From assembly GCA_030699685.1 (NCBI GenBank), contig JAUYLJ010000068.1, forward strand, positions 8,947-72,946: a stretch of DNA of 64,000 nt, read 5' to 3'. The stretch comes from a bacterium (GTDB lineage: Bacteria > Patescibacteriota > Patescibacteriia > JAHIZJ01). The notes under the pieces are model-generated. The model saw only the letters and a program-made list of their open reading frames with translations, made no database searches and was not told where the DNA came from. Each line of letters begins with the position of its first letter. Position 1 is the first letter of the stretch. Shown in pieces: positions 7,078-18,077 of the stretch. The position numbers and the translations under genes are program-made.

Positions 7078-7845
7078 ATGAATTCGAAAGACATCTCTCT
7101 CTTGGAGATGCTTAAAAGCGGAGTACACTTCGGCCATCAGAAGTCCCGCTGGCATCCCAAAATGAAGCAGTATATATTCACTGAACGCAATAGTGTTCAT
7201 ATTATTGATTTAGAAAAAACACGGGACAAACTGATGGAAGCCTTGGATTTCCTCAGGGAAACGGCCAGCCGCGGAGGAACGGTAGTGTTTATTGGTACGA
7301 AGAAGCAGTCCCAAAGCATCATTCTCAATCATGCTCAGGCTTCAGGCATGCCCTATATCGTCAACCGGTGGATCGGCGGATTGTTTACGAATTTTCCAGT
7401 GGTGAAAAAACTGCTGAACAAACTTTCGGAATTAAAACGCCAGCAGGAAAGCGGCGGTTGGCAGAAATATACGAAAAAAGAGCAAGTCTCTCTGAAAAAG
7501 CATTTGGACAAACTCCAAGGCCTGGTCGGCGGTCTCGAAAATCTGACGAAGATTCCCGACGCTATTTACGTGGTTGACGTGAAGAATGAAAAGACGGCAG
7601 TCGAAGAAGCCCGCCGCAAAAAAATCCCCATTGTGGCGCTGGTGGACACCAACATTGACCCTACCAAGATCACCTATCCGATACCGGCCAACGACGACGC
7701 AACAAAGTCGATAGAATACATTACCGGGAAAATAGCGGCCGCCATTATGGAAGGCAAGGATAATCCCGTACCGATTGAAGGGAAGGAAGAATCAGAAAAA
7801 ACGGTACCTGAGAAAGAAGCCGCAACCCAAAAGACAAGCTCCTAA
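7078..7845 (+). CDS. rpsB: 30S ribosomal protein uS2
   Basis: LLEMLKSGVHFGHQKSRWHPKMKQYIF is the canonical S2 N-terminus. Preceded by a TTGACT-17-TATAGT promoter and followed by tsf. Confidence 0.95.
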   Translation: MNSKDISLLEMLKSGVHFGHQKSRWHPKMKQYIFTERNSVHIIDLEKTRDKLMEALDFLRETASRGGTVVFIGTKKQSQSIILNHAQASGMPYIVNRWIGGLFTNFPVVKKLLNKLSELKRQQESGGWQKYTKKEQVSLKKHLDKLQGLVGGLENLTKIPDAIYVVDVKNEKTAVEEARRKKIPIVALVDTNIDPTKITYPIPANDDATKSIEYITGKIAAAIMEGKDNPVPIEGKEESEKTVPEKEAATQKTSS

Positions 7846-7860
7846 ACTTTAGGATAACCC

Positions 7861-8448
7861 ATGCCAAAAATCAGCACAGAACAAATCCAAACCTTGAGAC
7901 AAAGCACGGGCGTTGGCCTCATGGATGCTAAAAAAGCCCTGGAAGAAGCCGAAGGCGACCTGGTCAAAGCCCAGGAGCTTCTAAGAAAACGAGGAGAAAA
8001 AGTCACGGCGTCCAAAGCCAACCGCGTGACCGAACAAGGCATCGTCGAATCGTATATTCACGCCAATCAGAAAGTCGGCAGCGTGGTAGTCCTGCTTTGC
8101 GAAACGGACTTTGTCGCGCGCACTCCGGAATTCCAGGAACTGGCCCATGAATTAGCCATCCAGGTGGCCGCGACCGGTGCCTGCTATGTCAGTCCCGACG
8201 AGGTTCCAGCCGAAATCGTCGAGAAGGAGAAAGAAGTGATTCGCGCCCAGGTCGATTCCTCAAAAAAACCGGCTATCCAAGAATCAATTATCAAAGGAAA
8301 ACTGGATAAGTTTTTTGCGGAGATTTGCCTGCTCAAGCAGCAATACGTGAAAGACGACTCGATGACAATCGAAGAAATGATGACCTCTCGCGTCACGAAA
8401 TTAGGTGAAAACATCCGTATCAAAGAAATAGGCTATTTTGCTATTTAA
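7861..8448 (+). CDS. tsf: translation elongation factor Ts (short form)
   Basis: N-terminal UBA-like LRQSTGVGLMDAKKALEEAEGDLVKAQELLRKRG, and classic rpsB-tsf synteny. Confidence 0.9.
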   Translation: MPKISTEQIQTLRQSTGVGLMDAKKALEEAEGDLVKAQELLRKRGEKVTASKANRVTEQGIVESYIHANQKVGSVVVLLCETDFVARTPEFQELAHELAIQVAATGACYVSPDEVPAEIVEKEKEVIRAQVDSSKKPAIQESIIKGKLDKFFAEICLLKQQYVKDDSMTIEEMMTSRVTKLGENIRIKEIGYFAI

Positions 8449-8474
8449 GGTTTAACGCCTGAATACGAGCCTCC

Positions 8475-9320
8475 ATGGCTGACATCATCATCGTTATTAT
8501 CGCCGTTCTCTCACTGGCAGGTATCGCTTGGTTGACCTCTCGGCACTGGCAACAGCTATTGGCCTACCGCCCGGGAGCGGACAACGAACGCGTGGAACGG
8601 CGAAAACAAGATATTATCAGCCAGCGTCTTGAACGGAAGTTTACCCGGGTAAGCTTGCCGCTTGTTCGTTCTGTGCGGCCAGCGGTCTCCAAGGCGTTTG
8701 AGTGGGCGCGCCGGAGCTACCATGGGGTGCGGAATCTTGAAAATAAGTACCGTCACCTCAGCGAACAGGAGGCGGGAGAGGACCTCAAGACCGGCCCCAG
8801 TGTTCAGTACAGATTGCGCGGAGAAATTGACGAGCACATCCAAGACGAAAATTACGCCGATGCGGAGAAGAAACTCATTGAGTTGATATCACTCGACGCC
8901 GGAGATCCCGAGCATTACAGGCGATTGGGCCATTTGTACGTGGAGATGAAGGAATTTGGGCAGGCAGTTGAAACGTTTTCATACGTCCTTATTTTAGCGG
9001 CCAAGCTGAAACGTGAGCAGGAAGTGATCAGCGGTTCTGATGTCTCTGAGGAAGCGTCTGACCACATAAATCTCGGGCTGGCGTATCGTGGGTTGAGTAA
9101 ATACCCCGAGGCTTTGAAAGAAATGGAACGCGCTTGCCAACTGGAATCAAACAATCCAAGAAACCTTGATCTTTTGCTAGAGACAAGTATACTGGCACAA
9201 GATAAAATGCAAGCATGGAGCGCTTTTGATCGGCTAAAGGCGGTTAATCCGGAGAATCAAAAGCTAGCACAGTTCGAAGAGCAAATTCACGAGTTGGAAA
9301 GTAAGAGTAGGAATTTTTAA
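8475..9320 (+). CDS. hypothetical membrane-anchored protein with TPR-like helical repeats
   Basis: N-terminal TM helix. The C-terminal half has TPR-like segments (YRRLGHLYVEMKEFGQAVETF, LGLAYRGLSKYPEALKEMERACQ). Confidence 0.4.
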   Translation: MADIIIVIIAVLSLAGIAWLTSRHWQQLLAYRPGADNERVERRKQDIISQRLERKFTRVSLPLVRSVRPAVSKAFEWARRSYHGVRNLENKYRHLSEQEAGEDLKTGPSVQYRLRGEIDEHIQDENYADAEKKLIELISLDAGDPEHYRRLGHLYVEMKEFGQAVETFSYVLILAAKLKREQEVISGSDVSEEASDHINLGLAYRGLSKYPEALKEMERACQLESNNPRNLDLLLETSILAQDKMQAWSAFDRLKAVNPENQKLAQFEEQIHELESKSRNF

Positions 9321-9636: not shown

Positions 9637-9722
9637 GGGTCGGTACCCAAGCGGTCAACGGGGGCAGACTGTAAATCTGCTGGCCTCGGCCTTCGTAGGT
9701 TCGAATCCTACCCGGCCCACCA
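9637..9722 (+). tRNA. tRNA-Tyr (anticodon GTA) with long variable arm
   Basis: Acceptor GGGTCGG/CCGGCCC, anticodon stem-loop GCAGA-CTGTAAA-TCTGC, long variable arm TGGCCTCGGCCTTC, T-arm GTAGGTTCGAATCCTAC, discriminator A plus CCA. Confidence 0.8.
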
Positions 9723-9990
9723 GAGGGGTGTCTCAGGCAGACTGCCACCGCCACATCATTTTCTTTAATAATAATGGAGGCGGGGTGCCGCTAGAAAGCG
9801 GCATAAATCTGTTGGCTTCGGCCTTCGCGGCTTCTTCCGTATCGATGGCGAAATCCCGCTAGCATTTCAAAAATAAATTGTATAGCGCAGGGGGATCATA
9901 CCAGGTTCACCAGTTAGAAAATGTATTTGTTGGCTCGCCAGCCGATTTTAAGTGCGAAATGAAACGATTGGGAATAAATATAGAAACGTG
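9719..9990 (+). repeat. direct repeat copy 1 (tRNA-Tyr 3' end/downstream motif plus ~200 bp), repeated at 14424..14640
   Basis: The CCAGAGGGGTGT segment is followed by GCGGCATAAATCTG(T/C)TGGC(T/C)TCGGCCTTCGCGG..CGTATCGATGGCGAAATC...CCAGG(T/C)TCACCAGTTAGAAAA...TTGGCTCGCCAGCCGATTTTAAG...AATAAATATAGAAACGTGGAC. Both copies share this, and copy 1 has a ~55 bp extra insert. Confidence 0.8.
9770..9870 (+). pseudogene. degenerate partial tRNA-Tyr-like segment (anticodon arm and variable arm remnant) inside the direct repeat
   Basis: GCGGCATAAATCTGTTGGCTTCGGCCTTCGCGG parallels GGCAGACTGTAAATCTGCTGGCCTCGGCCTTCGTAGG of the intact tRNA-Tyr. The spacer motif TAATAATAATG(A/G)AGGC(A/G)(A/G)GGTGCCGCTAG is also duplicated, at ~9555 and ~9765. 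Confidence 0.5.
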
Positions 9991-10094
9991 GACACATAAA
10001 TTCTTGGTAATTAGTTTGAAACGTAACCAAAATAGATTGTGATAAAGAGTTTGAATAAATTGTCGTTTCGATGGTTAAATCGGTATTCTACTTC

Positions 10095-10355
10095 TTTACC
10101 TTAAAAAATCCGCGCGCGCAAAAAGAGAATAGGCAATTTTTCTGCTTGGCTTCGTGCTGACGCACGGGCGGTGGAGCTTCAATAAGGACGAGGCAAAACA
10201 AAAACTATTTTTGCGGGAGAAGGTGATTTTGCTTTGCCTCAACTCTTTTTTGTTGGCAGGATTTTTTTATCCGCCGCGCAGGAGGGTGCGGGAGGAATGC
10301 GCGGCAGATTATTTGCCGTTTGCTTTACGAAAACGGCCATTTATGTCAGGGTAAT
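10095..10355 (+). promoter_or_regulatory. left arm of a ~200-250 bp inverted repeat, immediately upstream of the TruD-like gene; contains a near-palindromic core
   Basis: Reverse complement of 14140..14345 with one ~95 bp indel. The shared core is GGAGGGTGCGGGAGGAATGCGCGGCAGATTATTTGCCGTTTGCTTTACGAAAACGGC(C/T)ATTTATGTCAGGGTA, which includes CGGCAGATTATTTGCCG. Confidence 0.75.
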
Positions 10356-10358
10356 ACC

Positions 10359-11408
10359 ATGACACGCTCAAAACAGTGCAACTATAAACTTAAATGCATC
10401 AATGATGATTTTCAAGTGACGGAAGTACCCTTGATGCCTACTTTAACTTTAAAGCGACCGCGTCGCTTTACTTATATTTGGATTCAAAAAACTGGATTCA
10501 CTACTTTTGATATTATCGAGCAGATAAAAGATTTTTTTAAGTTATCGTTCAGCGATGTATCCAGTCAGGGATTAAAAGACGAGGATGCTATCACAGAGCA
10601 ACTCATCTCAATAAAGAAAATTATAAAAAATGACGACATCATAGCTTTTAATAAGAAAAGCAAGTCCAAAAAGAATTTTTGCCATATTAAGCATATCGTT
10701 GGTTATGGAAATGAGGCTGTAAAGAAAAGAATGCTCCACGGAAATTCGTTTAGAATTGTCATTAGAAATCTGGATAAAACAATCTCCAATACTTTTTTAA
10801 GTTATATCTCTAGCCAAAGACATTATTATTTTATCAACTACTATGATAATCAACGATTTGGAATGCCTAGCGGTCCATACAATACGCATTTGATTGGTAG
10901 GGCTATCGTAGAAAATAAATGGAAGGACGCCTATAAACATCTCAAAAATTCAAATAACTCTCTTCCTAAAATTACAACGAAACTTGAAAGTACCTCCGAC
11001 TTCAAGGAGATATTTCGATTGCTGAACCCAAGGAAGGTTTCTTTTTTTGTTTCTGCTTACAATAGTTTTCTTTGGAATAGTCATGCATCTTCTGTCGTCA
11101 GAAAATATACTAAAAGCAAAAAACATATTTTCGAAAATGTCGGATATCTGTACATACCAACAGCATCTTCATTTCTGTGTCCAAATATCTGCGAGGTGGA
11201 TGGCTATGAATTTCTTGCAAAGAACTTCACAATCGCACTAAAGAAAAATAGTAGAAACCTTGTTGTTGCAACTACGATATATGCTGATGATTTAGAAAAA
11301 GACGGGCTACATAAGGGAAGGTGGAAATTAACTCTTTCTTTTTTCTTGCCAACTGGTAGTTATGCCACCATGATAGTTAAGCAAATCTTCTTGAGATTAA
11401 GTAAATAG
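10359..11408 (+). CDS. truD: TruD-family tRNA pseudouridine synthase
   Basis: N-terminal KCINDDFQVTEV matches KANPEDFVVVE of TruD. Catalytic-Asp motif QGLKDEDAITEQ (compare GxKDxHAVTxQ). INYYDNQRFG (compare NYFGxQRFG). C-terminal LPTGSYATMIVKQIF (compare LPAGSFATSVVRELI). Start moved to ATG 10359 because the track start lies inside the inverted repeat. The gene is markedly AT-rich relative to its flanks. Confidence 0.8.
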   Translation: MTRSKQCNYKLKCINDDFQVTEVPLMPTLTLKRPRRFTYIWIQKTGFTTFDIIEQIKDFFKLSFSDVSSQGLKDEDAITEQLISIKKIIKNDDIIAFNKKSKSKKNFCHIKHIVGYGNEAVKKRMLHGNSFRIVIRNLDKTISNTFLSYISSQRHYYFINYYDNQRFGMPSGPYNTHLIGRAIVENKWKDAYKHLKNSNNSLPKITTKLESTSDFKEIFRLLNPRKVSFFVSAYNSFLWNSHASSVVRKYTKSKKHIFENVGYLYIPTASSFLCPNICEVDGYEFLAKNFTIALKKNSRNLVVATTIYADDLEKDGLHKGRWKLTLSFFLPTGSYATMIVKQIFLRLSK

Positions 11409-11419
11409 ATTCTTATCTT

Positions 11420-12037
11420 ATGAATAAAAATATTGAAATAGAAATACGAGGACCATTGTCGAAAGAAAAATTCAATAAACTAGAGAGTTTTCTTAACGAA
11501 AAAGGTAGGAAGTTAATTGAAAAAAACAGAGTTTTAATTGACTACTCAACTTTTTTAGATGGGGGTATTGAAGATAGAAAAAAAGATATACGCCTGCGCG
11601 TCACTAACGGTGTCCCTGAAATAATAGTGAAAATCGGACAATGGGGCGGGACAGATCAACGAAAAGAGCTTTCGGTTTTAACTAATCCAAGCAGTTTTGA
11701 CACACTCGTCGAAATTTTTGGCGAACTTGGGCTGAAAAAAGGGATGCTATGCGTACGCAGGAGTAAAATCTATGAATATCAAGGAATAGAATTTGCGCTG
11801 GTTGAGGTTCCCAATCATAGCTATTATTACGAGGCAGAAAAAATGGCACATGAAGGCGAAAATCCTGAACAAATAACAAAGGACATAACAAAGGTATGTC
11901 GAGCTTTGCAACTTGAGATATTCGACAAAAAAACATTTTTTGAATATATCCAACGACTGAACAAAGAAGCAAATGAGGTATTTGACTACACTACTTCATT
12001 TAGGCCGAATTACTTCAAAAATAGATTTGGGCTATAA
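11420..12037 (+). CDS. CYTH-domain (triphosphate tunnel metalloenzyme / class IV adenylyl cyclase-like) protein
   Basis: N-terminal EIEIRG..., alternating charged beta-strand pattern (DIRLRV, EIIVKIGQWGG, FALVEVPN), about 200 aa. AT-rich and co-directional with truD (12 bp gap). Confidence 0.5.
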   Translation: MNKNIEIEIRGPLSKEKFNKLESFLNEKGRKLIEKNRVLIDYSTFLDGGIEDRKKDIRLRVTNGVPEIIVKIGQWGGTDQRKELSVLTNPSSFDTLVEIFGELGLKKGMLCVRRSKIYEYQGIEFALVEVPNHSYYYEAEKMAHEGENPEQITKDITKVCRALQLEIFDKKTFFEYIQRLNKEANEVFDYTTSFRPNYFKNRFGL

Positions 12038-12095
12038 CTCAAAAGAAAAAACGGGTGGAGAGTTTTCTGAACTCGCCACCCGTGTGTGTTTGCCG

Positions 12096-12341
12096 TTATC
12101 CATGATGACCCCTCACAAAGACTTTCCCTCGGATTATCTTATGGGCAGGCCTGTTATGAATAATGGCGTGTCGGGCGAACTTTTGACCGCAACTGGGGCA
12201 CTTGAGAGCACCATTTGTGCAATCCGACATGATCATATCGGCGTAACACTTTATGAGCGTCCCCCCGCCCTCTTTTTTGTAGCGGTAAAGCAGACCTGTG
12301 CATTTAGCGCAATGCACGGCAATCGTGTATGTTTTTCCCAC
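12096..12341 (-). CDS. small zinc-ribbon protein, likely last gene of the minus-strand operon
   Basis: CAKCTG...CPSCGQ (CxxC-x-CxxC). GTG start preceded by AAGGAG 7 nt upstream, and 12 bp after the PreA-like stop. Confidence 0.45.
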   Translation of the reverse strand: MGKTYTIAVHCAKCTGLLYRYKKEGGGTLIKCYADMIMSDCTNGALKCPSCGQKFARHAIIHNRPAHKIIRGKVFVRGHHG

Positions 12342-12353
12342 GTTCTTCTCCTT

Positions 12354-13499
12354 TCAGAAAGATGCCTTTATGGCATCAAATTTGGGAGGACATACTCCGA
12401 CACACGCGTTGCAAGAAATGCAGTTGTCGGCGATTACAGCGAGCGGCTTCCTGTTAGCACGACGAAGCATCGTCAGGGCATCAAAAGCGCAGGATTGAAC
12501 GCAGATTCCGCAACCAGTGCACTTCTCTTCGATTACGACCGGACATGGTGACGAAAAACGATGTTCGCGTGTCTTTTCAAGTGTGAGTCCGATCAGATCC
12601 TCAATCGAGTCGTACTGAGGATTCTCCGCGAGAAACCTCCCCAGTCCTGCCGTTATGCGCTTGAAGACAACCGGACCCTTCAGTGCTGGCGCGGTGTAAA
12701 GTTGCACTGCTCTTGCGCCTGCCATCAACATCTGGACAACGTCGTCAGCCGTGAAGATTCCACCACATCCGACGATCGGAATGGTAAGATTCTGCGAAAG
12801 TTGATGTACACACCACAGAGCAATCGGGAAAATCGCTTTTCCAGACACTCCGCCGCCGCCACCCTTAATACCGAGCTTGGGTTTGGCGGTTTTGGTGTCG
12901 ATCAACATTCCGGGACCGATACTATTCGTGCAGACGATGGCGTCAGCGCCTAACTCTTGGGCGCGCTGAGCCATAGAGAGTAGCAGGTTCGAGTATGACA
13001 ACTTGATCCAGATGGGCGTCTTTGTAACGCCCCGCACCTTCTTCATTAGTTGTTCCAGATGAAGCTCGTCAACATTCAAGTTGCCGTGCAGTGCGCCTGA
13101 GTGCGAGCAGGAAATGTTGATCTCGTAGGCATCAACATCAAGCTCGTCAAAGGTCTGGATCAAATAGCAACAACTCTCGAGGTCGCGACCAGAAAGAGAA
13201 ACGATGATCGGACAGCCAGCGTCTTGCACATGGCGCACTCCACTGTCTCGCCACTCTGTCCACGGTTTCTCGTTTCCCCATTCGCAGTTAAGCATGTTGT
13301 CTTGTCCGAAAACCGCGTAACGCGGGACGGTAATTCTCGAACGCTCCGGCGGAACGCGTTGCTTGAGCGAACGGGTGACTATCCCCGAACAGCCGTATGG
13401 TTGAGCTCTCATGAAGAACTCTGGCGTTTCGGTAATGTATCCTGATGCCAACAAGAGCGGTGTCTGGAGACTTACACTTCCTACTTGCGTCCTGAGCAT
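12354..13499 (-). CDS. dihydropyrimidine dehydrogenase subunit PreA-like / DHODH-family flavoprotein with C-terminal 2x[4Fe-4S] ferredoxin domain
   Basis: TIM-barrel DHOD/DPD motifs: active-site EINISCSHSG (compare ELNLSCPHG of DPD/PreA), GIKGGGGGVSGKAIFPIAL, VGCGGIFTADDVVQMLMAGARAVQLYTA. C-terminal CTGCGICVQSC...CISCNACVGVCP. No PreT partner is visible. Confidence 0.7.
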   Translation of the reverse strand: MLRTQVGSVSLQTPLLLASGYITETPEFFMRAQPYGCSGIVTRSLKQRVPPERSRITVPRYAVFGQDNMLNCEWGNEKPWTEWRDSGVRHVQDAGCPIIVSLSGRDLESCCYLIQTFDELDVDAYEINISCSHSGALHGNLNVDELHLEQLMKKVRGVTKTPIWIKLSYSNLLLSMAQRAQELGADAIVCTNSIGPGMLIDTKTAKPKLGIKGGGGGVSGKAIFPIALWCVHQLSQNLTIPIVGCGGIFTADDVVQMLMAGARAVQLYTAPALKGPVVFKRITAGLGRFLAENPQYDSIEDLIGLTLEKTREHRFSSPCPVVIEEKCTGCGICVQSCAFDALTMLRRANRKPLAVIADNCISCNACVGVCPPKFDAIKASF

Positions 13500-13501
13500 G
13501 G

Positions 13502-14071
13502 CTATCCTCCTTTCTGTAGATGTGGCGCTAAAATCGCGAGCACTTCCTTAAACACCATGCGTTCTGTCGCTTCGGAGATTTCAACCACCGAGGTAAACAG
13601 TGATCTTTGCCGCAGGATTGTCCTGATCTCGTCATCGGCTGCCGCAACTCTTTTTTCTATCTCTGCAGAGCTTTCTGTCTTTCGTATGATAGCAAGCCTT
13701 TTGTGAAGCAGAGGTAGTTCAGAGGTAACGAAACCGATAGTGATGACTGCAGGATTGATTCTGAGCGCTTCCGAAACATTGTTCGGGTGCAACTCAGTCA
13801 ATCTGATATCTGTGGTTGGAAACAAATCCTTCCCCCTAAGGCCATAGCGATGGCCAAAGAGGTCTTGAACCAACACCAATTCACCAATATCAGCCCTCCG
13901 ATTGAACTCAGAAACTGAAACAGGGATTCTGTTTCCTCTACCCTGTTCGTCTGGTCGCAGGGGGCGGGTAGTAAACCATGTCAGTTCCTGAATGTATGGG
14001 TGAAGCTGCAATAGCCGTTCCTTGACGTATCCCTTACCGATTCCGGAAGGGCCGCTGAAAGCGATTATCAT
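13502..14071 (-). CDS. divergent guanylate-kinase-like P-loop nucleoside monophosphate kinase
   Basis: P-loop IAFSGPSGIGKGY and FTTRPLRPDEQGRGNRIPVSVSEF resemble Gmk (GPSGVGKGT; TTRxPRxGExxGxDYxF). The conserved GMP-contacting Tyr context is altered. Stop abuts the PreA-like start (operon). Confidence 0.6.
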   Translation of the reverse strand: MIIAFSGPSGIGKGYVKERLLQLHPYIQELTWFTTRPLRPDEQGRGNRIPVSVSEFNRRADIGELVLVQDLFGHRYGLRGKDLFPTTDIRLTELHPNNVSEALRINPAVITIGFVTSELPLLHKRLAIIRKTESSAEIEKRVAAADDEIRTILRQRSLFTSVVEISEATERMVFKEVLAILAPHLQKGG

Positions 14072-14139
14072 CGTACCCCTCCTTTCGTTCGTTTGTGAAA
14101 GAACTTTTCCTAATTCTTAGGAGCATCCTAAGAATTATA

Positions 14140-14345
14140 TTACCCTGACATAAATAGCCGTTTTCGTAAAGCAAACGGCAAATAATCTGCCGCGCATTCC
14201 TCCCGCACCCTCCTGATTGAAGCTCCGCCGCCAGCGTGAAGCCGAGCAGAAAAATTGCCTATTCTTTTTTTGTTTTTGCGCGCGCCGATTTTATCCTTAA
14301 AGGAAAGACAATTTTTCTGCGAGGCAGTGTCATTTGGCAGCACGG
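14140..14345 (-). promoter_or_regulatory. right arm of the inverted repeat, immediately upstream of the Gmk-like/PreA-like operon
   Basis: Reverse complement of the 10095..10355 core, including the CGGCAGATTATTTGCCG near-palindrome. The 66-67 aa ORFs the track places in both arms share an identical 23-aa C-terminus simply because of the repeat. Confidence 0.75.
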
Positions 14346-14423: not shown

Positions 14424-14640
14424 AGGGGTGTTCACTCACTCTAACGCGGCATAAATCTGCTGGCCTCGGCCTTCGCGGGTTCTTCCGTATCGATGGCGAA
14501 ATCTCGTTAACATTTCGAACATAAGTTGTATAGTGCAGGGGAATCCTACCAGGCTCACCAGTTAGAAAAAATGTCTTTGTTGGCTCGCCAGCCGATTTTA
14601 AGCGCACAACGAAACCATTGGCAATAAATATAGAAACGTG
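14424..14640 (+). repeat. direct repeat copy 2 (att-like; begins with CACACCAGAGGGGTGT resembling the tRNA-Tyr 3' end plus downstream)
   Basis: See copy 1. About 85-90% identity by eye over ~200 bp. Confidence 0.8.
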
Positions 14641-14685
14641 GACGCACCATTCTTAAATAATTAATTAAACACTTAATAAAACATC

Positions 14686-16983: not shown

Positions 16984-17409
16984 TTATTGTTTCGTCAATA
17001 TCGAAAAGAATGTTTCGAGATGGGCAAACGCTTCGTCAAGAGTCTGGTAGGATCGGGACTGAATGTTTGAATTTCCAAGCACCATCGGACTGGCGTGAGC
17101 GGATGTTCCTTCTCTATAGAGCGCCATGATTGGGATGTTTCGGCTTTCCGCCAAGCCGATCTCGTAACCGACTCCGATTGAAGGCGTGGAAATATCGGCT
17201 ACCAGCGCGTCGGCCTGCCGGACTAAACCAGAATCGTAATCGTAAATCTCTTGGTGTGTAAACTCGACTCTTCCTTTGTCCGTGATGGCCGGATCGCCCA
17301 CGAAATCGCTGAGAACCTGTCCGTAACTTCGCAAGTGCGTAATCAAGGCGCTGTAGATAGTGACATCCTGGCGGCCGCTTCGAATTGATCCGGCGAAATA
17401 TATTTTCAC
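16984..17409 (-). CDS. DNPH1/Rcl-like 2'-deoxynucleoside 5'-phosphate N-hydrolase (nucleoside 2-deoxyribosyltransferase family)
   Basis: VKIYFAGSIRSGRQDVTIYSALITHLRSYGQVLSDFV matches LYFCGSIRGGREDRTLYERIVSRLRRFGTVLTEHV of DNPH1. ADALVADISTPSIGVGYEIGLA matches ADVVVAEVTQPSLGVGYELGRA. Start set at GTG ~17409 because the track's upstream ATG overlaps the preceding gene by 120 bp. Confidence 0.8.
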   Translation of the reverse strand: MKIYFAGSIRSGRQDVTIYSALITHLRSYGQVLSDFVGDPAITDKGRVEFTHQEIYDYDSGLVRQADALVADISTPSIGVGYEIGLAESRNIPIMALYREGTSAHASPMVLGNSNIQSRSYQTLDEAFAHLETFFSILTKQ

Positions 17410-18077
17410 TATATCCGTATGCCAAAACTTTGGAATATCCCCAGCACTCCGTGGAGAATGCCAAAAACAATGCTCAGCCAGGCCATATAGCGGTGGTAGT
17501 AGCTCATCTTGACGATGGAGTTGTCCCATTTATCCGGTCCGGGTATCTTTCCTTTCCAGGGAACGGAACGGACGCACCAGGGCATGACGTAACAAGACAT
17601 GAAGTTCAAAATGAAGACCAGCGCGAACACATAGCCGGTCCAGGCCGTGAGGTTTTTGTCAAAAAGCAGGATGTTGGAGCGACCCGCGGATCCCGTCTTT
17701 TCTGTCCCAGGTTCACCCAGCCGTCCGACTACCTCGAAGCCGGCAAAGACTTCCGTGCCGTGCGGTGCTTCGGAAAGCGCCTGGGTCAGGTCTACCCCGG
17801 CCGCGTGGCCGAAGTGACTGCCTTCCTCAAACATTGCACTGTCGCTCACATCGTAAATCAATCCTTGGTAGGCGTAGTAGGCCGGCCGGCCATCCTGTCC
17901 GTCAAAGGCGCTCAGTTCTTCGTTGCTGAATGCTCGCAGGCTCTCTGTATCGATGGCTGATTCTTCATCAACCGCCGCGGCAATCACCGCGCTTGAGAGA
18001 AATACCGTGGCCATGAAAAGGTAGCCTACAAGAATCGCTTTTTTTGATGGTGGTAATTCCTTCCAGTATATTTTCAT
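17409..18077 (-). CDS. membrane protein with cytochrome b5-like haem/steroid-binding domain and C-terminal TM helices
   Basis: N-terminal signal-anchor, then FDGQDGRPAYYAYQGLIYDVSDSAMFEEGSHFGHAAGVDLTQAL (cyt-b5-like fold pattern), then three hydrophobic helices. Confidence 0.5.
   Translation of the reverse strand: MKIYWKELPPSKKAILVGYLFMATVFLSSAVIAAAVDEESAIDTESLRAFSNEELSAFDGQDGRPAYYAYQGLIYDVSDSAMFEEGSHFGHAAGVDLTQALSEAPHGTEVFAGFEVVGRLGEPGTEKTGSAGRSNILLFDKNLTAWTGYVFALVFILNFMSCYVMPWCVRSVPWKGKIPGPDKWDNSIVKMSYYHRYMAWLSIVFGILHGVLGIFQSFGIRI

Follow-up and report, generated by a model that had tools for sequence, protein, structure and literature searches.

A cassette of five genes at positions 10359-14071 of the analysed window, a 64,000-nt stretch of contig JAUYLJ010000068.1 from a Patescibacteriota bacterium, recurs across Patescibacteria in changing genomic surroundings. 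It codes for a TruD-like protein, a CYTH protein, a zinc protein, a flavoenzyme of the PreA/dihydropyrimidine dehydrogenase (DPD) type and a nucleoside monophosphate (NMP) kinase with the fold of guanylate kinase (Gmk). We tentatively read the cassette as a laterally transferred Patescibacteria module that acts on free uracil nucleotides and is distinct from housekeeping genes, a reading that we consider plausible, if short of probable. Observed are its gene content, its conservation and mobility, the retention of catalytic motifs and the loss of housekeeping signatures. The open reading frame (ORF) listing and the Pfam annotation of the window gave five ORFs in two convergent units, as an earlier interpretation of this DNA, the sequence-only reading, had described, and Pfam backed the TruD, CYTH and DHO_dh/4Fe-4S domains it had named, with a match below the cut-off for Guanylate_kin. 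The literature search found no report of a system with this gene combination, and PADLOC had no match for any of the five proteins; these searches found no described counterpart, in agreement with the same reading. A known anti-phage defence system was discarded as an identity for the cassette on the PADLOC result.

Conservation was analysed in a scan of one genome per GTDB species, with tblastn for the partner genes. The scan detected 39 Patescibacteria loci with 38-69% identity to the TruD-like protein, followed by a sharp drop to 41 canonical TruD loci with 22-29% identity. The former include Paceibacterota, Saccharibacteria/Nanosyncoccaceae, Uhrbacteria, Kerfeldbacteria and Portnoybacteria. 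At least 25 of these 39 species-level loci contain the five-gene set, in three gene orders, and tblastn recovered all five genes in 22 loci. Three loci (L030, L035 and L042) have a colinear order of zinc protein, TruD, Gmk and dihydroorotate dehydrogenase (DHOD)-like genes, followed by a different CYTH; in L025, the five genes share one strand. Contig edges truncate several more loci, and partner genes were absent despite flanking sequence only in L022, L032 and L033. A full-length partner gene was found beside none of the 41 canonical truD genes. The five genes are arranged as in the window on contigs of relatives at 70%, 63% and 43% identity, where their neighbours are unrelated, and clustering of the ORFs around the cassettes revealed no further recurrent neighbour. 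The zinc protein and the DHOD-like flavoenzyme are similarly well conserved, followed by the CYTH protein, the kinase and finally the TruD-like protein. The co-occurrence of the four enzyme families is a feature of many Patescibacteria loci. The core of the sequence-only reading withstood the objections it had named itself: scores below the equivalog cut-offs and flanking genes that differ between loci speak against housekeeping truD, gmk and pyrD genes with orthologous neighbours.

The TruD-like protein belongs to the TruD family with its catalytic aspartate motif, as had been proposed. It matched Pfam PF01142 with an e-value of 7.5e-42 and 144.1 bits, against a gathering cut-off of 27. The score against the equivalog model TIGR00094 was 121.1 bits, below the cut-off of 172.2, and the scores for all other TruD equivalog models were far under the respective cut-offs. 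The motifs GLKDEDA, with the catalytic aspartate, and NYYDNQRFG show no or almost no variation among 14 diverse members. A profile search of PDB retrieved human PUS7 (2.6e-24) and archaeal TruD (2.3e-22), with E. coli TruD as a weaker match (4.5e-12). The protein collection holds 324 relatives; the best 120 of the 324 share 42-100% identity. Judged by sequence, these proteins are a distinct, Patescibacteria-only TruD/Pus7 subfamily.

The kinase is related to guanylate kinase and yet distinct from it. Only Gmk structures aligned to it. Its scores stay below the cut-offs for Pfam Guanylate_kin PF00625 (0.0019, 18.4 bits, cut-off 25.2) and NCBIfam TIGR03263 (53.8 bits, cut-off 160.45). The P-loop GPSGIGKG, the TTR motif, R39 and the arginines R125, R130 and R141 of the LID are invariant, which suggests that the residues for kinase competence are kept. 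The base pocket differs. Ser34, Glu69 and Ser80 of yeast Gmk, which we take to be the guanine contacts, align with Trp, Leu and Leu. This tryptophan (W32) is invariant in the kinase family, and an invariant arginine replaces the tyrosine of the Gmk 'DY' motif. The 144 relatives have a length of about 189 amino acids throughout, and are named hypothetical by NCBI; the kinase is always encoded within the cassette. A dedicated kinase with a new base pocket points to a non-canonical NMP as substrate. A second Gmk-like ORF in L016 (7215-7754) was considered as a separate housekeeping gmk; its own sequence is atypical and it was not used.

The flavoenzyme is PreA/DPD-like with two [4Fe-4S] clusters and not an ordinary PyrD, in line with the first assignment. 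Pfam identified a DHO_dh domain (8.8e-41) and the 4Fe-4S dicluster families Fer4_7 and Fer4_21, and the eight cysteines for two clusters are invariant in the family. In alignment with pig DPD (1gt8), the uracil-site residues N609, E611, N668, S670, C671 and N736 are identical and T737 is replaced by serine. The substrate loop NCEWGNEK is akin to NIELISEK of DPD. The family has additional invariant arginines (R42, R52 and R104). The scores are below the cut-offs of both NCBIfam class 1 PyrD (185 bits, cut-off 269-270) and NCBIfam PreA NF006183 (147 bits, cut-off 335). A PreT-like gene was not recurrent among the clustered ORFs near the cassettes. In L017 (11841-13562, minus strand), the kinase gene lacks a stop codon and continues in frame into the flavoenzyme gene, giving one ORF of 573 amino acids. 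The fusion may be genuine or may stem from a sequencing error. In a Nanosyncoccus locus (L037, 3692-4795, minus strand), the flavoenzyme reads EINVSGSYD in place of the SCxHS motif with the catalytic cysteine, and CYTH and the zinc protein are missing. This cassette is probably decaying, because the flavoenzyme has lost its catalytic-cysteine motif.

The CYTH assignment was upheld, with a marginal pass of PF01928 (1.3e-5, 25.5 bits, gathering score 23.2). The protein stays below the cut-off of the cyaB model TIGR00318 (32.8 bits, cut-off 57.95) and matched PDB 2een with 2.2e-4. Invariant in the family are IExE, KDIRLR, RKE and EAE. The fifth position of the ExExK motif, R10 in the protein of the window, varies. 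The different CYTH of L042 scored higher, with 69.4 bits for Pfam and 98 bits for TIGR00318, and passes this class IV adenylate cyclase model.

Variant cassettes indicate the type of substrate. Cassettes that lack CYTH have a gene for a nucleotide pyrophosphatase in its place or next to it. L039 has TruD, an S-adenosylmethionine (SAM) methyltransferase and Maf (TIGR00172, 125 bits, cut-off 117), followed by the zinc protein gene. L013 has TruD, a methyltransferase and an Idi/YfcD-like NUDIX protein. The same NUDIX family directly follows the kinase in L041, and a NUDIX gene is located divergently upstream of TruD in L038. Ham1-like and NUDIX genes stand beside the TruD-like genes of L022 and L033. 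Maf enzymes prefer pseudo-UTP and 5-methyl-UTP as hydrolysis substrates (PMC3899018). A pathway of free nucleotides is suggested because Maf and NUDIX pyrophosphatases take the CYTH slot or flank it.

The zinc protein was named a zinc-ribbon protein by the sequence-only reading. The zinc part stood; in place of a ribbon, the fold model gave a beta-tent (Mss4-like) domain with two beta-meanders and an apical four-cysteine zinc site, similar to members of this fold. Four cysteines are predicted to bind zinc and a fifth, Cys32, is invariant. The family signature is C..C...LY.Y.KEG.G.L.KCY...I..D.T...L.C..C...FAR....HNRPAHKII.G.V, and no Pfam family matched. On this model, the protein is a minimal beta-tent domain serving as a ligand-binding or catalytic module. 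Uridine binding by the CULT member of the fold is mentioned in PMC4287342 with reference to Hartmann 2014. Among 1.8 billion representatives, 262 relatives were retrieved without the use of a profile. They include longer, eukaryotic-looking proteins with N-terminal extensions of 40-200 amino acids that resemble organelle-targeting peptides (P0253, P0256, P0332, P0341 and P0384); one is KAK9794313.1 of the green alga Symbiochloris irregularis. All of these longer proteins are annotated as hypothetical, and the relatives are all uncharacterised. A rubredoxin-like electron carrier was dropped as a candidate after the beta-tent result, and a Nop10-like pseudouridine-synthase partner, the name in one JGI record, was unsupported by Pfam.

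The cassette may well turn uridine nucleotides into an uncommon nucleotide of the pseudouridine type. We infer substrates, order of steps and redox direction as follows. The CYTH protein, or Maf or NUDIX in variants, would hydrolyse a pyrimidine nucleoside triphosphate (NTP) to the NMP. The TruD/Pus7-like enzyme may isomerise the N-glycoside of uridine monophosphate (UMP) into the C-glycoside pseudouridine-5'-phosphate, freeing N1. A base with a free N1 resembles a 5-substituted uracil and could be acceptable to a DPD-type pocket. The flavoenzyme would reduce the 5,6 double bond with electrons of a low-potential donor transferred via the two clusters. The Gmk-fold kinase would phosphorylate the non-canonical NMP to the diphosphate, and the beta-tent zinc protein, as an accessory subunit or one that confers specificity, may bind the ring, which resembles uracil or dihydrouracil. 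This would yield a nucleotide derived from pseudouridine that is possibly in the 5,6-dihydro form and, in some variants, methylated. TruD-like enzymes and dedicated kinases are known to serve small-molecule C-nucleoside pathways, as PumJ and the malayamycin cluster do (PMC8724604). A more specific product, 5,6-dihydropseudouridine di- or triphosphate, methylated in the methyltransferase variants, would be undescribed in biology and could serve as signal, antimetabolite or RNA building block; in this exact form we regard it as quite unlikely.

Several points weigh against the scheme. To our knowledge, all biochemically characterised TruD/Pus7 enzymes act on RNA, and the direct substrate of PumJ is unproven. 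A futile cycle would result if the kinase and an NTP pyrophosphatase shared one nucleotide instead of handling different species. Cyclisation by the CYTH protein is possible, because the CYTH of a variant cassette passes the class IV adenylate cyclase model. The role of the zinc protein need not be bound to the pathway, since members of its family are also present by themselves in eukaryotic algae. The ORFs around the cassettes revealed no linked exporter, polymerase or other consumer of the product, and the literature search yielded no report of dihydropseudouridine. The earlier argument that all four enzyme families act on pyrimidine nucleotides goes beyond established knowledge: TruD acts on RNA, Gmk on guanosine monophosphate and PreA on free bases. 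Of the modified-pyrimidine-nucleotide pathway proposed with it, the nucleotide level gained support from the replacement of CYTH by Maf and NUDIX, while its function is as conditional as the scheme above.

Salvage or house-cleaning is a rather unlikely explanation of the same genes. Non-canonical nucleotides from host RNA, such as pseudo-UTP, pseudo-UMP and dihydro-UMP, would lose phosphate groups, return to UMP by re-oxidation or re-isomerisation and be phosphorylated again, which would be useful to organisms lacking de novo pyrimidine synthesis. Reports on Patescibacteria generally describe them as unable to make nucleotides de novo. The house-cleaning pyrophosphatases of the Maf, NUDIX and Ham1 types in or beside the CYTH slot, together with the pseudo-UTP preference of Maf, fit this explanation, and the oxidative direction is natural for DHOD-type enzymes. 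Judging from the known equilibrium of the PsuG reaction, however, the conversion of pseudouridine-5'-phosphate to UMP would be strongly uphill. A remodelled base pocket of the kinase would be needless if the pathway ended in UMP, and the cassette is patchy and mobile instead of a universal Patescibacteria trait. We also consider it unlikely that the cassette modifies or processes RNA, with the TruD-like enzyme forming pseudouridine in tRNA or rRNA, the flavoenzyme acting as a ferredoxin-linked dihydrouridine-synthase-like enzyme, the beta-tent protein binding RNA ends like RIG-I, the CYTH protein as RNA 5'-triphosphatase and the kinase as polynucleotide kinase. The RNA substrates of the characterised TruD/Pus7 enzymes speak for this, as do RIG-I C-terminal domains, which the zinc protein resembles in structure. 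Yet the flavoenzyme keeps the residues of a closed DPD-type pocket for free bases, the kinase keeps the NMP-phosphate motif TTRxxR of Gmk, and Maf, a pyrophosphatase of free NTPs, replaces CYTH in L039. The tRNA genes near the cassette are better explained by the integration of an island.

The cassette could also be an anti-phage or inter-bacterial weapon, in which a nucleotide analogue poisons polymerases of phages or hosts, comparable to prokaryotic viperins with kinases and to pseudouridimycin. A pseudouridine-derived inhibitor of RNA polymerase is a precedent (PMC8724604), and the patchy distribution, varying contexts, island location, mosaic base composition and inverted-repeat flanks are typical of accessory cargo. 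The missing PADLOC match, the lack of a linked sensor, effector or exporter and the lack of the cassette in IMG/VR make this improbable. Such a use concerns the product; it is compatible with the chemistry proposed above rather than an alternative to it. A chance neighbourhood of housekeeping truD, gmk and pyrD or preA genes is very improbable. Source annotations use the name 'tRNA pseudouridine(13) synthase TruD', and some JGI records have 'guanylate kinase', but the proteins are all below the NCBIfam equivalog cut-offs, NCBI calls the kinase hypothetical and its guanine-contact positions are replaced. The gap in identity between the two groups of TruD loci, the linkage exclusive to the Patescibacteria subfamily and a conserved cassette among non-conserved neighbours also contradict a chance neighbourhood. 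The tentative preference stays with a mobile module for free uracil nucleotides.

The mobility of this module is visible in base composition and location. The TruD and CYTH genes of the window have a guanine-cytosine (GC) content of 0.34-0.36, compared with about 0.50 in the flanks. In 15 loci (the window, L006, L008, L010, L011, L015, L016, L019, L021, L023, L024, L027-L029 and L036), these two genes are 6-23 GC points below the zinc protein, DHOD-like and kinase genes, whatever the GC content of the host. The split is intrinsic to the cassette and suggests a chimeric origin or a recent spread that outpaced amelioration. The distance from the cassette to a tRNA gene is at most about 1.3 kb in L006, L011, L017, L019, L028, L031 and L035; in L017, the cassette follows the same tRNA-Thr/tRNA-Tyr pair as in the window. 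The conserved cassette, differing flanks, GC content and tRNA adjacency together indicate a functional unit moving between genomes. A phage origin was rejected: neither the cassette nor a relative of the TruD-like protein was found in IMG/VR.

The boundaries of the island agree with this (Table 1). The direct repeats of 237 nt contain segments D1 and D2 with 89% and 80% identity, and segments D3 and D5 match tRNA-Tyr. Positions 9795-9913 and 14443-14561 resemble tRNA-Tyr from the anticodon arm to the 3' end, and their T-arms are interrupted by a conserved insertion of about 58 nt. Such repeats, with tRNA fragments and beside an intact tRNA-Tyr gene, are the signature of integration at a tRNA gene. 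No integrase was present in the 4.6-kb island between the repeats. The horizontally acquired island of the sequence-only reading is supported by direct repeats, tRNA-Tyr fragments and GC contrast.

Table 1. Genes of the cassette and features at its boundaries, with positions in the window.
Feature	Position	Strand	Basis
tRNA-Tyr (GTA), probable integration target	9637-9722	+	ARAGORN; Rfam tRNA 55.5 bits
Left direct repeat, att-like, with sequence like the tRNA-Tyr 3' half	9795-10031	.	Repeat comparison
Left inverted-repeat copy with two-hairpin element	10103-10356	+	P1 ~10190-10240, P2 ~10270-10307, core 10193-10318
TruD/Pus7-family pseudouridine-synthase-like protein, 349 aa	10359-11408	+	Pfam, NCBIfam, motifs
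CYTH/triphosphate-tunnel enzyme, 205 aa	11420-12037	+	Pfam, PDB 2een
Zinc protein, 81 aa, Cys-rich, predicted beta-tent fold	12096-12341	-	Fold model
PreA/DPD-type flavin mononucleotide (FMN) flavoenzyme with C-terminal 2x[4Fe-4S] domain, 381 aa	12354-13499	-	Pfam, 1gt8 alignment
Gmk-fold NMP kinase, guanine-recognition residues replaced, 189 aa	13502-14071	-	Gmk structure alignments
Right inverted-repeat copy, truncated, without P1 and the 5' arm of P2	14138-14292	-	Repeat comparison
Right direct repeat, att-like, with sequence like the tRNA-Tyr 3' half	14443-14681	.	Repeat comparison

Upstream of the island, rpsB (7078-7845) and tsf (7861-8448) precede tRNA-Thr and tRNA-Tyr. Together with the source names given to homologues, these genes assign the window to a genome of the Patescibacteria (CPR). 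The usual pyrH-frr pair does not follow rpsB and tsf in this region (7078-9320); an ORF of 281 amino acids takes its place, followed by the two tRNA genes. A DNPH1-like/nucleoside 2-deoxyribosyltransferase gene (16984-17529, minus strand; PF05014, 8.9e-12) lies 3 kb away from the cassette and had been suggested to be functionally linked to it. This link was given up: the gene is outside the direct repeats and was not a recurrent neighbour among the ORFs clustered around other cassettes. An ORF of locus L158 (1746-2195), which resembles the DNPH1-like gene by eye, is cargo between a pair of the repeats described next.

The cassette of the window is framed by an inverted repeat with a two-hairpin element. 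A core of 78 nt with 99% identity (10279-10356 and 14138-14215) is extended by weaker outer arms to 10103 and 14292. The left copy has about 95 nt that are missing from the right one, in which the truncated two-hairpin copy covers 14138-14232 on the minus strand. A 35-mer of the repeat occurs exactly twice in the window, with zero occurrences expected. Two hairpins with conserved loops precede the TruD-like gene of the window and those of L014, L016, L017, L018, L020 and L043. The loop of hairpin P1 is AACUAUUUUYNGGGRG and the purine-rich loop of P2 is GGAGGGUSYGGGAGGAA. All four loci with both sides visible (the window, L016, L017 and L018) have a copy on each side of the cassette. An early assumption that no other genome has the inverted repeat was discarded; it is absent in L002, L004 and L006, but pairs exist in L016, L017 and L018.

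The element is more widespread than the cassette. A pattern scan of metagenomes matched at least 120 contigs of the Patescibacteria type (L088-L207), with at least 115 true two-hairpin copies of about 125-150 nt each. Among the matches listed, only the copies of L119 and L159 adjoin a cassette, the genes downstream are diverse, and the 12 contigs with two copies always have them facing inward, 1.5-9.5 kb apart. The cargo of these pairs is unrelated and on either strand: an ABC transporter, a surface protein of 1195 amino acids, NUDIX and other small enzymes, glycosyltransferases and pilin-like genes. Copies are located within 150 nt of a locus end in 27% of the cases, as expected of a repeat that breaks assemblies. 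The structure is supported by covariation, analysed by explicit pair counting in a cleaned alignment of 51 copies. The 27 proposed pairs are paired in 91%, compared with 35-45% after a shift of the 3' partners by one to three columns. Compensatory changes affect 22 of the 27 pairs and both stems. The covariation score was 0.391, compared with 0.130 after shuffling, and none of 500 shuffles reached 0.391. Folds of 110 distinct copies have a median of 22 base pairs in P1 and 14 in P2. A T-rich run follows each hairpin, and the element may insulate transcription.

The two-hairpin element behaves like the terminal inverted repeats of a cargo-carrying unit and may be a new type of mobile-cassette end or structured DNA or RNA element. 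The analysis identified neither a transposase nor a target-site duplication or mobility event for it. Of the duplicated regulatory element postulated by the sequence-only reading, the repeat pair is real; a cassette-specific regulator is not supported, as this is a generic repeat beside unrelated genes. A riboswitch was rejected because of the missing Rfam match, the weak folding z-scores of the window copies (0.16, -1.06 and -1.79) and the at least 115 copies beside unrelated genes. In L016, the copy on the kinase side keeps the P2 stem but has the loop in reverse orientation to its flanks (9901-9940 compared with 13815-13855), and the two main variants of the P1 stem look like strand-swapped versions of each other. 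These observations may reflect a flipping of hairpin loops at the DNA level. IMG/VR contigs (L211, 8611-8864, and also L208, L209 and L212) contain an array of 7.7 iterons of 33 bp, GAAAACTATTTTCTGGGTCTGGGGTCGAACCCC; in L211, the ORF around it resembles a replication initiator and has DnaC-like and SSB genes as neighbours. The iteron unit of L211 joins both loop motifs of the two-hairpin element, which may be a coincidence given the search pattern.

Patescibacteria represent a large share of bacterial diversity, and their accessory metabolism is almost uncharted. The cassette has hundreds of instances and a clear enzyme chemistry, and direct tests of it could lead to a new nucleotide or a new pathway for pyrimidines. 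Its TruD-like protein could be the first example of a Pus7/TruD enzyme with a target other than RNA that is not tied to antibiotics, and the zinc protein could give a function to an uncharacterised beta-tent family shared with algae. If the proposed chemistry is true, this would be the first TruD/Pus7 enzyme shown to act on a free nucleotide, together with a DPD-like reductase that is driven by ferredoxin, a Gmk-fold kinase specific for the product and a beta-tent protein that binds the ring; an antimetabolite use would target hosts or phages. The carriers include Saccharibacteria/Nanosyncoccaceae, which have cultivated relatives, so experiments are feasible. The two-hairpin repeat may reveal how accessory genes move in Patescibacteria genomes.

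Known systems share parts of these features. Repetitive extragenic palindromes (REP/BIME), miniature inverted-repeat transposable elements (MITEs) and mobile insertion cassettes, in which terminal inverted repeats enclose passenger genes and no transposase, are, like the two-hairpin repeat, multi-copy, hairpin-forming and arranged in inverted pairs around unrelated cargo. Unlike these elements, the repeat has two long covarying hairpins with conserved loops, and it had no match in Rfam. The predicted fold of the zinc protein is common to Yippee/Mis18, MsrB, the cereblon CULT domain, the RIG-I C-terminal domain and GFA. Sequence searches gave no significant match to these families, and the zinc protein is a minimal version without the Trp cage of CULT and without the active-site motif of MsrB. 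The house-cleaning pyrophosphatases Maf/YhdE, NUDIX and Ham1 fill the CYTH position in variant cassettes, whereas the enzyme of the window is a CYTH tunnel enzyme and the variant CYTH matches the class IV cyclase model.

E. coli PreT/PreA and mammalian DPD share the FMN barrel, the two [4Fe-4S] clusters, the catalytic cysteine and the uracil-site residues with the flavoenzyme. They differ in that the flavoenzyme has no PreT-like FAD/NAD(P)H subunit nearby, carries the extra arginines and is joined in frame to the kinase in L017. The C-nucleoside antibiotic clusters for pseudouridimycin, with PumJ, PumH and PumD, and for malayamycin combine a TruD-family enzyme with a dedicated P-loop kinase, as does the cassette; they also contain phosphatases, and their pathways have pseudouridine or its 5'-phosphate as intermediate (PMC8724604). 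Compared by gene content, these clusters are large and actinobacterial, contain oxidoreductases, aminotransferases and ligases, and are devoid of a DPD-like Fe-S flavoenzyme, CYTH and a beta-tent protein. The kinase has the fold, the P-loop, the phosphate-binding motif TTRxxR and the LID arginines in common with Gmk. It departs from Gmk in the guanine contacts and in its scores below the Pfam and NCBIfam cut-offs, and PhnN shows that a kinase of the Gmk fold can have another substrate.

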